Positions 1,119 through 24,030 of a DNA stretch of 24,307 nucleotides are shown piece by piece. The notes beneath the pieces are model-generated. The model ran no database searches. It saw nothing but the letters and a program-made list of their open reading frames with translations, and was not told where the DNA came from. The position numbers and the translations under genes were made by a program. Each line of letters begins with the position of its first letter. Positions within the stretch are counted from its first letter, which is position 1. The DNA is from a virus (Duplodnaviria > Caudoviricetes): positions 1 through 24,307 of the IMG/VR virus record IMGVR_UViG_3300014656_000971; one strand, given 5' to 3'.

Positions 1119-1901
1119 TTATTCTCCTATTTCCGGTATATAATTCCATGCTCTTAATGCTCTATACACCTCTTTATTTTGTTCTTTAATAGTCATTTTG
1201 GCATTATCTAATATAAAATCAAACTTATCATTACTTAAATTATTTAATGCTAGTTCGCTTTCGTGACTATCTTTTAGAGGATTTCTGGTAAATTTAATAA
1301 CCTTACCACCAACCTTTTGAATTCCTTCTACTTCATTGGGGAATCTACAATCTGTAATAACTGCTAATTCTGTTTGTTCTTGTTCTACTTGTCTAAGCGT
1401 CACATCTACCCAAACATTATAATACATTCTACGAAAAATGTTGGTGCCAATATATTGTAAAACTTCTCTAGCACTCATATATGCATCAACATCGTGTGTT
1501 GGATCGTTTTTTTCAACGGTTGGCATATCTGACCATTTATAGTCTGTAAGTGTATTCTTGTGAGCATCTGTCAAATAACATTGGTCTGAATGTAATCCCA
1601 TAATATCAATACATAATCTTTTAAGCGGGTCGGCAAAACTATACAACTTTACATAAGGAAAAATACACTTTTCTAAAAAATTAACCATTGTGTCGTTGTT
1701 TGGTTCATATCTACGATTTACATCAAAAACACCTTTATATTCTTCTTCTCCCCATAGGTCACCAATATTTAGTTGCCCGCCATCATCTATAAACATACTT
1801 TTAGTATATCCTAAATGAATCATATGAACACCTAATATAAAGTTGGCACTTGTATTTTTACCACTTTGTTTTTTACCAGCTAAACCTAATATCTTAACCA
1901 T
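1119..1901 (-). CDS. deoxynucleoside monophosphate kinase (phage dNMP kinase)
   Basis: N-terminal P-loop GLAGKKQSGKNT, plus SFADPLK, REVLQYIGT, ITDCRFPNE and HESE motifs. Confidence 0.9.
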   Translation of the reverse strand: MVKILGLAGKKQSGKNTSANFILGVHMIHLGYTKSMFIDDGGQLNIGDLWGEEEYKGVFDVNRRYEPNNDTMVNFLEKCIFPYVKLYSFADPLKRLCIDIMGLHSDQCYLTDAHKNTLTDYKWSDMPTVEKNDPTHDVDAYMSAREVLQYIGTNIFRRMYYNVWVDVTLRQVEQEQTELAVITDCRFPNEVEGIQKVGGKVIKFTRNPLKDSHESELALNNLSNDKFDFILDNAKMTIKEQNKEVYRALRAWNYIPEIGE

Positions 1902-22210: not shown

Positions 22211-22686
22211 CTTCCGCTTGACCCAAATCCTTGTTTACCTCTTTTGGTTTTCATTAATTCATCCACTACTTTTGGTTTAATGTTTAGTAACGGAATAAAT
22301 ATAAGTTGTGCTATTTTATCGCCGGGATTAATTGTTTGTGGCAAAGAACTCAAACTAACAATACACACTTTTATCGGGCCAATGTATCCTGGATCTATTA
22401 TTCCGGCGATTACATGTAAACCTCTTTCTGACGCATTTCCAGACCTATCCTTAATAAAACAACCATATCCTTCCGGACAAGCGATTTGTATACCTGTACT
22501 GAATAAGTGTCGCTCTCCAGTATACAAAGTATATTGTAGTTTTTTGTCTTCTTTGTTATGATGTAAATAATTTTCCGGTTGAAATTTCTTATCTTCTACA
22601 CAATATAAGTCCCATCCTAAATCATTATCATAATTTTTTGTTGGAACCTTGGCATCTTTGTGTATTAATTGCACTTCAAAATACAT
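22207..22686 (-). CDS. dut: trimeric dUTPase
   Basis: Motifs GWDL, DRSG, AGIIDPGYIG, IAQLI, RGKQGFGSSG; start re-called to ATG 22686 with GGAG SD. Confidence 0.93.
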   Translation of the reverse strand: MYFEVQLIHKDAKVPTKNYDNDLGWDLYCVEDKKFQPENYLHHNKEDKKLQYTLYTGERHLFSTGIQIACPEGYGCFIKDRSGNASERGLHVIAGIIDPGYIGPIKVCIVSLSSLPQTINPGDKIAQLIFIPLLNIKPKVVDELMKTKRGKQGFGSSGR

Positions 22687-22698
22687 TTTTTCTCCAAT

Positions 22699-22733
22699 AA
22701 TAAAAGAACCTGTCACTTCTAGAAGTAACAGGT
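22699..22733 (-). terminator. intrinsic terminator ending the tRNA/ncRNA operon
   Basis: ACCTGTTACTT-CTAG-AAGTGACAGGT 11-bp stem (one G-U) followed by TCTTTTATT. Confidence 0.75.
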
Positions 22734-22765
22734 AAAAATATATTATAATAAACCACATCTATCAG

Positions 22766-22838
22766 CAGAGGCGTAAGGAGTTGAACCTTAGAAAAATATG
22801 CTTCAAAGACATACTGTAGAACCGTCTACAACACCTCT
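22766..22838 (-). tRNA. tRNA-Gln(UUG), atypical D arm
   Basis: Acceptor AGAGGTG/CGCCTCT, discriminator G; D arm TGTAGA-CGGT-TCTACA; anticodon loop CTTTGAA; T arm TAAGG-TTCAACT-CCTTA; no encoded CCA. Confidence 0.8.
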
Positions 22839-23039
22839 CTAGTCCCACCCACCCAACCATTCCTTTATACTCTGAACTAGAGTACATGAAAGGCATCGAC
22901 AAAAACTTAACCTCATTATGACGAGTAATAAGATGTCCATTTCGTCAGAATACAATTATTTGCACGAAATTGTGCTTTTACTAATTATATTCAAATGAAC
23001 TGTTTTTGTTTCAACCAGTTGTAGTCATAAAGACTACAG
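22839..23039 (-). ncRNA. candidate 201-nt structured RNA in the Ile-Gln tRNA spacer
   Basis: Several hairpins with G-U pairs on the minus strand and a 6-bp bulge-loop complementarity (TGACGA/TCGTCA); no listed ORF. Confidence 0.6.
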
Positions 23040-23112
23040 TTGTGTGCTTGAGAATCGAACTCAACTAAACAGGCTCATCAGACCAGCATCTTCTCCAGAG
23101 GATCAACACACA
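23040..23112 (-). tRNA. tRNA-Ile(GAU)
   Basis: Acceptor TGTGTGT/GCACACA, discriminator A; anticodon arm CTGGT-CTGATGA-GCCTG (one U-U); T arm TTGAG-TTCGATT-CTCAA. Confidence 0.8.
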
Positions 23113-23115
23113 ATT

Positions 23116-23178
23116 TGAGCAGAGCACACACTTACAACTGTCCAACGATGCTCAGCGTTGACTATTTTTGTTGTAAGT
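23116..23178 (-). ncRNA. 63-nt pseudoknot motif, copy 1
   Basis: ACTTACAAC AAAAATA GTCAACG CTGAGCAT CGTTGGACA GTTGTAAGT GTGT GCTCTGCTCA; covaries with copy 2. Confidence 0.8.
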
Positions 23179-23184
23179 CTAAGG

Positions 23185-23257
23185 TGGCGAGAGTCAGAAT
23201 TGCACTGACGCCAGTGTGCTTATGAGACACACGGTGGAACTAACACCACTTCTCGCT
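23185..23257 (-). tRNA. tRNA with CAU anticodon (Met, fMet or Ile2)
   Basis: Acceptor AGCGAGA/TCTCGCC (A1-C72 mismatch), then A73-CC; anticodon arm TGTGT-CTCATAA-GCACA; T arm GTCAG-TGCAATT-CTGAC. Confidence 0.78.
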
Positions 23258-23285
23258 ATGTTTTATTATAAACAAAGTTATTAAA

Positions 23286-23354
23286 AGCCCCTTCAGAGAA
23301 TCGAACTCTGCCTAATTGTTTACAAAACAATCGTACAAACCATTAATAAGGGGC
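23286..23354 (-). tRNA. tRNA-Thr(UGU), short and poorly paired D arm (69 nt)
   Basis: Perfect acceptor GCCCCTT/AAGGGGC; ATTGT-TTTGTAA-ACAAT; CAGAG-TTCGATT-CTCTG. Confidence 0.75.
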
Positions 23355-23356
23355 GG

Positions 23357-23438
23357 CGGAAGCAAAGGGAATCGAACCCCTAAATCTTTCGATCAACTGT
23401 TTTCAGGACAGTTTCCTTAGCCAGTTCGGATTACTTCC
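23357..23438 (-). tRNA. tRNA-Ser(UGA)
   Basis: Acceptor GGAAGTA/TGCTTCC, then G73-CC; ACTGT-CCTGAAA-ACAGT; long variable arm GATC-GAAA-GATT; AGGGG-TTCGATT-CCCTT. Confidence 0.88.
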
Positions 23439-23474: not shown

Positions 23475-23509
23475 TTAAATTTTGAGAAAACCATACAAAA
23501 TTTCAAAAA

Positions 23510-23572
23510 TGAGCAGAGCCCCATCGTATCTCTGTCCAACGATGCTCAGCGTTGACTACTCTTGAGACACGA
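23510..23572 (-). ncRNA. 63-nt pseudoknot motif, copy 2
   Basis: TCGTGTCTC AAGAGTA GTCAACG CTGAGCAT CGTTGGACA GAGATACGA TGGG GCTCTGCTCA; starts 5 nt after the stop of the 150-aa ORF. Confidence 0.8.
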
Positions 23573-23577
23573 CACGC

Positions 23578-24030
23578 TTATGGCGTAACTCTTTGATAAC
23601 TAAATGTATTAACTCTACTAATACCAGAAAACATTGGACTTCCACTATATCTAATATATCTTCTATCTCCAGACACATTGACTTGTGTTGTAAAATTAGC
23701 ACCTTGTGGCAACCATATAATTACTGGCCTATACCCAACGTGTTGATTAATTATATTGCGTGTTCTTCTATCAAAATCTTGTTGTGCTAAAAACTGTCTC
23801 ATTGACAAAGGTTCTGAAAGTTGTCTATTCCATATTGGACCAAGGACTTTTTCAATTTCCACTTTTTCCTGCTCTATAAACTTATTAACATTTTCTAAAG
23901 GGGTATCGTCAAAGATATATTCTTGACTATATGCCTTTTGACAGTATAACGGCACTATTACAAATATAACAAATAAAATAATCAAAATAAATATTATATA
24001 ATTAAGATTGTCTAGTATCTTGTTGAACAT
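23578..24030 (-). CDS. signal-peptide/TM protein with a planctomycete-type secretin-like C-terminal motif
   Basis: Hydrophobic N-terminus ending AYS; C-terminal VGYRPVIIWLPQGANFTTQVNVSGDRRYIRYSGSPMFSGISRVNTF. Confidence 0.65.
   Translation of the reverse strand: MFNKILDNLNYIIFILIILFVIFVIVPLYCQKAYSQEYIFDDTPLENVNKFIEQEKVEIEKVLGPIWNRQLSEPLSMRQFLAQQDFDRRTRNIINQHVGYRPVIIWLPQGANFTTQVNVSGDRRYIRYSGSPMFSGISRVNTFSYQRVTP

Follow-up and report, generated by a model that had tools for sequence, protein, structure and literature searches.

The closest described systems include the phage-encoded structured RNAs GOLLD and ROOL, which have no assigned function, often lie near tRNA islands and form kissing loops; many of the GOLLD RNAs treated in the same report are longer than 800 nt, and the word "quadruplex" does not occur in its main text (PMC12286853). 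The RNA family described here shares the tRNA-island placement in four of its five lineages. Unlike GOLLD and ROOL, it has one kiss and no match to an Rfam covariance model, and its members measure 126–224 nt, or at most ~415 nt in one genome (G021). The family thereby adds a tractable member to the unexplained structured RNAs of phage tRNA islands.

A likeness of topology is offered by the Alu domain of the bacterial signal recognition particle (SRP) RNA, a three-way junction in which two arms meet through a five-pair pseudoknot and the 5′ and 3′ parts are clamped by a helix (PMC4231752). In contrast, the family lacks the UGU of the Alu linker and the S domain, its kiss is often bulge-to-loop, and it carries a tail of G tracts; the hairpin found where an S domain would be, P7, is not conserved. 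The packaging RNA of phage phi29 is also built on a three-way junction, in which a bulge-loop of one arm is the complement of the following hairpin's loop. Junction, bulge/loop complementarity and size are all similar in the family, whereas its bulge lies on the 3′ side and Rfam yields no match. Moreover, the phage analysed here has a primase, a DnaB-like helicase, a UvsX-like recombinase and ribonucleotide reductase, unlike phi29-type phages.

Two further comparisons concern the 3′ end. In the MALAT1 and MEN-beta RNAs, RNase P cuts at a downstream tRNA-like unit and the resulting 3′ end is protected by a triple helix. The analogy is one of working, in that an RNase P cut on the tRNA side of the phage RNA would create a protected 3′ end; MALAT1 and MEN-beta are eukaryotic, use a triple helix and not a quadruplex, and have no sequence relation to the family. 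In Spinach, Mango and sc1, obtained by in vitro selection, the binding surface is a two-tier quadruplex resting on a duplex, and the family, with its predicted quadruplex–duplex, would be a natural and conserved phage case. In bacteria, according to a review, RNA quadruplexes are depleted and have been little studied, the mapped cases lying in coding regions (PMC8191793). A selected quadruplex in a phage non-coding RNA, if true, would be a surprising counter-example. It would also allow a direct test of whether quadruplexes fold and act in bacterial cells.

Other known RNAs were considered and set aside. The helix P1 has a likeness to the Ro-binding stem of Y RNA; it is not kept in the homologues, Rfam gave no Y RNA match, and no Ro60/TROVE gene was found among 34 ORFs of the analysed DNA (PHROGs) or two ORFs upstream of it (Pfam), the genome being a fragment. 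Of the T-box riboswitch, which has a stem I, a full T-box and an antiterminator ahead of a gene, only the GGUGG of the tail is reminiscent; Rfam gave no T-box match either, and downstream of the G021 copy there is no gene on the same strand. The rod with a central bubble that characterises 6S RNA differs from the branched fold of the family and is likewise without an Rfam match.

The tRNA cluster and its setting

The window, that is, the whole stretch of DNA analysed, is a virus record of 24,307 nt that is present in groundwater metagenome runs. Its long ORFs lie on the minus strand, and their products serve replication and nucleotide metabolism in a large phage; they include (PHROGs, 34 ORFs) helicase, primase, recombinase, ribonucleotide reductase, ligase and dUTPase. 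No cultured phage is close to it: ligase identities stay below 36%, and a clade-typical ORF is unmatched. On the minus strand the cluster reads tRNA-Ser(UGA), -Thr(UGU), -Met(CAU), -Ile(GAU), a spacer of 201 nt, tRNA-Gln(UUG), a terminator-like hairpin and the dUTPase gene. The 5′ neighbour of the spacer RNA is tRNA-Ile (23040–23112), whose discriminator is A 23040, the ARAGORN call stopping at 23039. Its 3′ neighbour is tRNA-Gln (22765–22838), which lies downstream of four of the five family members, and a hairpin resembling an intrinsic terminator (22708–22733) closes the cluster ahead of the dUTPase gene.

The spacer sequence is not an assembly artefact, since contigs from two further studies carry it: a contig of 3,674 nt spans it with no differences, and in a third study a pair of contigs from run X3 spans it jointly with one differing letter, in a piece that also covers the flanks. 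In run X1 there is a second allele of tRNA-Gln and the terminator (22676–22849), with 12 substitutions and two insertions; it has compensatory changes in the anticodon stem, keeps the anticodon and shows no listed difference within the RNA tail. The five tRNAs of the cluster (22765–23438, minus strand) are unusually divergent, four scoring 20–37 bits in Rfam and tRNA-Ile being unmatched; tRNA-Ile has G at position 37, and tRNA-Ser and tRNA-Thr almost abut. Directly 5′ of the cluster lies an ORF of 150 aa (23578–24030, minus strand) with no relative in a near-length search of 5.8 billion proteins, and farther upstream in the same phage, beyond the window and ~2 kb from the cluster, an ORF encodes a PARP catalytic domain (PF00644, E 3e-20; L149:32–877, plus strand).

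Predicted fold of the spacer RNA

The predicted RNA fills the spacer between tRNA-Ile and tRNA-Gln (22839–23039, 201 nt), and all of its elements are read on the minus strand. At the 5′ end stands P0, a hairpin of 7 bp (23038–23032/23026–23020) that is optional and not part of the core, and whose 5′ strand includes a GUCUU motif (23034–23030), an alternative partner of the tail end. The closing helix P1, of 6 bp (23018–23013/22844–22839), joins the 5′ region to the last six bases, and P2, of 8 bp (23009–23002/22906–22899), closes a three-way junction (domain 22899–23009) around a long arm and the kissing hairpin. The arm (22935–23000; outer strands 23000–22993/22942–22935) is made of P3 with 7 bp, the 11-bp stem P4 (22992–22982/22958–22948) and the cap P5, GCAC/GUGC (22975–22972/22965–22962), and its 3′ side bears a 6-nt bulge, the kissing strand K1 (22942–22947). 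The complement of K1 (22924–22919) lies in the loop (22925–22919) of P6, a hairpin of 9 bp (22934–22926/22918–22910); A 22942 is assigned to the arm helix and to the kiss alike. A variable hairpin, P7 (22862–22893), precedes the G-rich tail (22858–22839), the conserved part of which (22843–22858) has four G tracts and ends in GGUGGGA (22849–22843).

An earlier, sequence-only reading had proposed most of this fold, and its helices and complementary hexamers are all present at their minus-strand positions, the helices P1 and P2 being additions to its list. Folding of the spacer against shuffles, which that reading had called for, gave a minimum free energy (MFE) of -54.3 kcal/mol and a z of -4.15 on the minus strand, and no shuffle out of 200 folded as well. 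Across 61 minus-strand tiles of the contig the lowest z was -3.4 (20 shuffles per tile), short of this value. The plus strand of the spacer reaches a nearly equal z of -4.10, with only -39.6 kcal/mol, and folding by itself therefore cannot fix the strand. The G-U pairs do speak for the minus strand, as had been suggested: across the family, the helices chosen as P2, P3 and P6 comprise 87 pairs, 80 Watson–Crick and seven G-U, with no mismatch.

Several other identities for the spacer were rejected. A hidden ORF is contradicted by stops in five of the six frames, the one stop-free frame, of 60 codons, running into tRNA-Gln. The first 32 nt have a likeness to a CRISPR repeat that is not kept in the homologues. 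A hammerhead using the anticodon loop of tRNA-Ile was dismissed on inspection, the required stems not forming, as was the tail as a complement of 5S RNA or of the anti-SD.

Relatives of the RNA

Direct sequence searches failed. The window RNA and three of the homologues described below (L190, L207 and L157) gave only chance-level blastn matches in 50,697 phage records; a scan of viral contigs with the kiss pattern gave 102 loci, none similar by nhmmer, and a viral-contig scan with the exact tail pattern gave none. A covariance model built on one sequence found nothing besides the window in 31 sources and one match at E 0.87 in 26 records; the model is insensitive, because those 26 records contained four true members. 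Anchoring on the PRTase gave no relatives in viral contigs, and searching GTDB with the ligase led only to four distant loci, all without tail plus kiss. Relatives were therefore sought by conserved gene order: 18 of 120 listed ligase relatives were aligned and 33 viral loci were fetched, several of which keep the order tRNAs, dUTPase, glycosyltransferase, ligase and sigma factor.

Four further lineages were found in five records. L157 and L158 (IMGVR_UViG_3300029807_000001 and 3300029925_000021) have identical spacers and are counted as one lineage; L159 (3300026519_000198) is a copy cut by the contig end; L190 is in G002 (3300031227_000050); and L207 lies in G021 (3300030329_004457), a phage that has in common with the window a glycosyltransferase, dUTPase, GMP reductase/IMPDH and an ORF of 64 aa. 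Since L157, L159 and L190 were located by their position upstream of tRNA-Gln(UUG), their G tracts were not selected by pattern; those of L207 were, this member having been reached by the tail pattern alone, run on 24 records. The tail pattern matched 17 of 50 records, five of them the family records. In G003, G009 and G013 the matched sites do not pass the core descriptor; for a further nine records the sites were discarded on visual inspection of their folds, not by the descriptor. The near-complete or larger relatives G003, G005, G009 and G013 had no member in the sequence fetched. Carriers occupy three of the main branches in a 14-row tree of the glycosyltransferase, with no clustering beyond chance (166 of 500 shuffles were as low), and the non-carriers on carrier branches are fragments, 15–40% complete.

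Rfam, which the sequence-only reading had wished to see searched, returned no match for the window RNA or its homologues at gathering score or at E ≤ 10, and the RNA is distinct from GOLLD, as that reading had expected. No paper listed by literature searches describes the RNA in its title or the opening of its abstract; the supplement of the 224-motif paper (PMC5737381) is outside that coverage and may include non-Rfam motifs. The family is thus without an Rfam match and apparently undescribed.

A shared architecture with a kissing contact

The members share one order of elements: P2, P3, an optional insertion, the 6-nt K1, the return of P3, a linker, P6, the return of P2, a linker, P7 and the tail. 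A closed three-way junction is present in the four complete members, in which the insertion measures 46, 31, 16 or 0 nt. P3 has 5–7 bp and P6 has 5–9 bp with a loop of 6–7 nt; the linkers between P3 and P6, of 0–5 nt, are none, UA, CGAAA, GAG and GA. P4 and P5 differ among members and are both absent from G002, which at 126 nt is a natural minimal form. The 201-nt RNA proposed at the outset stands as a member of the family, while the conserved unit is smaller, a core of ~125–170 nt, with P0 and the long arm as optional additions.

In all five members K1 and the P6 loop can form five or six pairs, and the letters differ among all five lineages: UGACGA/UCGUCA in the window, GGGCA/UGCCC in L207, GACUA/UAGUC in L157, UGGGGA/UCCCCG in L190 and GGCGAA/UUCGCC in L159. 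When each K1 was set against its own and the non-cognate loops, its own duplex was the most stable in five of five rows. The distance between K1 and the loop (the P3 return, linker and 5′ strand of P6) is kept at 15–17 nt in every member. The kissing contact that had been proposed from one sequence is supported because the sequences have turned over completely in five lineages, each pairing best with its own loop. Of course, the strength of this support should not be exaggerated. A joint probability of 3.8e-12 that the kisses arose by chance overstates it, because the helices were hand-delimited and only five lineages are available, one of them truncated; MAFFT misaligned the members, so that no multi-sequence model was built and the segments were delimited by hand. 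The kiss descriptor alone is common, occurring in 310–737 of 2,000 shuffles (16–37%) and in 20 of 80 regions upstream of tRNAs, and the full core descriptor is passed by six of 76 non-family four-tract sites in 2.16 Mb. Taken alone, the homologues fold less strongly than the window RNA (z -1.94, -0.74, -2.48 and -2.26), L159 has a possible alternative fold without P3, and overall alignment of the window with the other members is near noise (z -0.6 to 2.7), L159 and L190 reaching z 7.0 with each other.

The case for a family rests on a conjunction of genomic position, tail, a fold that stays the same while its letters change, and L207, which met a kiss descriptor written from the first four members before it was inspected. 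On these grounds the spacer is very probably a member of a conserved structured RNA family. At 126–224 nt the RNAs are small enough for probing and crystallisation, and the five mutually different kissing pairs, together with the minimal G002 form, suit swap tests.

The G-rich tail

Only the tail and a short partner, GU(U)CUY, keep their sequence in the family. GGUGGGA is invariant in all five members, and the two GG tracts upstream of it are kept, with loops of 1–2 nt that vary in letter and length. The tail had been read at first as a minor alternative pairing with the 5′ end; such pairing is possible, but the tail is the most sequence-conserved part of the family. GGUGGG within 60 nt 5′ of a tRNA occurs at two of 80 tRNA calls, both family members, and four-tract sites are rare in the counted stretches of carrier phages (0.04–0.15 per kb). 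The G4Hunter score of the window tail, 1.75, is the maximum of the contig, barely over the next sites (1.7 and 1.65).

All five tails show the sequence pattern of a two-tier RNA G-quadruplex, namely four runs of two or more G separated by short loops. When quadruplexes were allowed and the core helices enforced, a two-tier quadruplex appeared in five of five MFE structures; in the window it was ahead by just 0.3 kcal/mol under these constraints, a near tie. Without constraints, the MFE structure contained the quadruplex in four of the five members, the window being the exception. Formation of the quadruplex, as the folding software predicts it, is somewhat more probable than its absence. In the window and L207 the predicted quadruplex takes two G of the last tract, and the third G begins a duplex with the 5′ region, which would explain why this tract, and no other, invariably reads GGG with an A after it. 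Pairing of the GGGA end with GU(U)CUY is possible in every member and may account for part of the conservation of the tail, and closing helix and quadruplex may coexist as a duplex–quadruplex junction. About 127 nt 3′ of the G021 member there is a degenerate second copy of the end of P7 and the tail, with a complementary stretch beyond (L207:1620–1650 and 1730–1750, plus strand).

Placement of the copies

The GGUGGGA end lies 4 nt from tRNA-Gln(UUG) in the window, 3 nt in L190, 5 nt in L159 and 33 nt in L157. The 5′ neighbour varies, being tRNA-Ile in the window, tRNA-Trp in G006 and, in G002, an ORF whose stop codon the copy follows directly. Ends set by processing of the flanking tRNAs, as the sequence-only reading had it, accordingly fit the 3′ side of four of the five copies; they do not fit the start of the G002 copy, nor the G021 copy, which has no tRNA and a predicted promoter of its own. 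That promoter is a 12/12 match to the sigma-70 consensus ~260 nt upstream; the 415 nt beginning there have a fold of z -3.88 in which the tail pairs with the 5′ end, the copy lies on the strand opposite to the flanking genes, and it overlaps no stop-free frame of 50 codons.

The placement and predicted promoter of the G021 copy suggest a stand-alone RNA. One that usually rides a tRNA operon is favoured because this copy is tRNA-free and because the relatives G003, G005, G009 and G011 have tRNA-Gln(UUG) and no tail. G021 also encodes a tmRNA with the tag AEPSFAMAA (L237:2829–3293, minus strand) beside ferredoxin, Fe-S assembly and prepilin-type genes; the tag and the prepilin-type and Fe-S proteins are typical of Planctomycetota.

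Proposed function and competing explanations

The reading that we prefer, at a probability of roughly 40%, is a processed, nuclease-resistant decoy or adaptor RNA, in which a kiss-locked scaffold would present a quadruplex-capped 3′ end to a binding partner. RNase Z and RNase P are the standard enzymes of bacterial tRNA processing. The spacer RNA would be transcribed within the tRNA operon, cut at its 5′ end by RNase Z after tRNA-Ile and at its 3′ end by RNase P before tRNA-Gln. The tail quadruplex, predicted in the window and G021 to sit directly on a short helix between the tail end and the 5′ region, would then shield the 3′ end. Because the junction and kiss sequences are free and the tail is fixed, the kissing domain would be a shape scaffold and the quadruplex–duplex junction the recognised surface, the tail binding a protein partner as decoy or adaptor. 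That the RNA acts in trans on a protein is, on its own, somewhat short of an even bet. More tentatively still, the family might be a new natural class of phage RNA, a conserved G-quadruplex–duplex junction on a kiss-locked scaffold that matures from a tRNA operon and has as its partner a factor of host or phage, or else a guanine-type ligand; the tracts of the window and G008 (2+3+3+3 G) could form a three-tier quadruplex with one vacancy filled by a free guanine nucleotide.

The main rival of the quadruplex is a closing helix, in which the tail and GU(U)CUY would form a G-U-rich duplex that is itself the recognised feature and a competing 5′ hairpin would make a two-state fold that closes only with a complete 3′ end. 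Each of the five members has a single GU(U)CUY, which in three of them stands close to the 5′ end (positions 6, 17 and 7), its pairing with the tail has a probability near 1 in L157 and L207 and ~0.7 in L190, and in the window and L157 a local 5′ hairpin does compete with it. On the other hand, the pairing probability falls to ~0.16 in the window, and the motif is internal in L190 and inside P6 in L159. Moreover, the helix leaves the two upstream GG tracts unexplained, their partners differing among members, and gives no reason why U-G pairs never turn into U-A; we regard it as rather unlikely. The tail might instead act in cis, by pausing or ending transcription or by forming an R-loop, and so control the release of tRNA-Gln or prime DNA synthesis. 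Cis action of this kind is exerted by the G-rich tracts of ColE1 RNA II and mitochondrial CSB II, and it would suit the four copies that precede tRNA-Gln(UUG), three of them at 3–5 nt, and the U-rich runs 3′ of the tail in L157, L159 and L207. It does not suit the absence of such a run in the window and L190, the G021 copy without a downstream tRNA, its position at 48 kb when the GC skew of that genome flips near 60 kb, or the tail-less tRNA-Gln(UUG) of the four relatives; a cis element is thus distinctly unlikely. A DNA-level element (a single-stranded DNA fold or a DNA quadruplex serving replication or recombination), or common ancestry of an unselected spacer, would be consistent with the folding of both spacer strands at z ~-4.1 and with G-T pairs, which form in single-stranded DNA too; it is highly improbable, given that four of the five copies share the strand of the tRNAs, three abut tRNA-Gln, and the helices and kiss outlast the sequence.

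Other alternatives keep the kissing fold and change its use. An intermolecular kiss would yield dimers or rings, as in the GOLLD and ROOL cages or the phi29 packaging RNA. The ROOL kissing loops were at first taken as tertiary and proved quaternary in the account given there (PMC12286853), and in the window P3 and P6 are joined without a linker, which favours coaxial stacking with the loops pointing apart. The other members, however, have linkers of 2–5 nt, the similar lengths of P3 and P6 and the fixed span are what side-by-side intramolecular docking would lead one to expect, and there is one kiss per RNA where cages have many bridges, so that intermolecular pairing appears improbable. Mimicry of the Alu domain, by which the kissing junction would dock at the elongation-factor site of the ribosome and slow host translation, draws on the same topology, the Bacillus domain being described as a helix-closed three-way junction with a five-pair loop–loop pseudoknot (PMC4231752). 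The absence of the UGU linker in all five members, of an S domain and of any SRP family match makes it very improbable, and it leaves the tail unaccounted for. For the window copy only, a latent, non-circularly permuted hammerhead of type GCS can be drawn, held off by the kiss and cleaving after C 22898. Its three blocks, GAAA (23012–23009), CUGAnGA (22948–22942) and GUC (22900–22898), stand in the described GCS order (PMC10085705), with stems III, I and II of 8, 5 and 3 pairs; none of 20,000 shuffles reaches this arrangement and 10–18 of 20,000 reach relaxed versions, in a test that was post hoc. Yet none of the four homologues has CUGAnGA, the aligned strand reading CUGGCGA in L159 and CUGGGGA in L190; a position that is invariant in hammerheads changes there together with the loop. 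Stems I and II are weak (-2.7 and +0.9 kcal/mol) against the competing P4, P3 and kiss (-7.7, -4.5 and -6.4 kcal/mol), and the source paper reports a single natural GCS case, a weak one (PMC10085705); a hammerhead is exceedingly improbable.

Other RNAs in these phages

The window contains two copies of a second RNA motif (23506–23576 and 23112–23182, minus strand), 71 nt long and 82% alike over 55 nt, one filling the spacer between tRNA-Met and tRNA-Ile and the other following an ORF stop. Its outer helix of 9 bp differs in letters between the copies yet remains paired, the inner hairpin is identical, and the loop pairs over 6 bp with the 3′ tail. No Rfam match was obtained, nor any homologue by pattern scans or a covariance model in 1.08 Mb of relatives; the motif is a candidate ribozyme or nuclease block.

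Further non-coding sequence lies in the tRNA regions of the relatives. In G006 and G007 (L157:1200–3200, plus strand) most tRNA spacers are long and, by eye, rich in hairpins, the Rfam matches being to tRNAs only, and more undescribed RNAs are likely there. A group I intron occurs inside the tRNA cluster of G003 (L191:8582–8865, minus strand). Finally, the close relatives G009 (L194, ~1730–1790, plus strand) and G013 (L198, ~8240–8180, minus strand) have in their tRNA regions a common non-coding stretch that is unrelated to the family and, in G009, lies upstream of tRNA-Gln.
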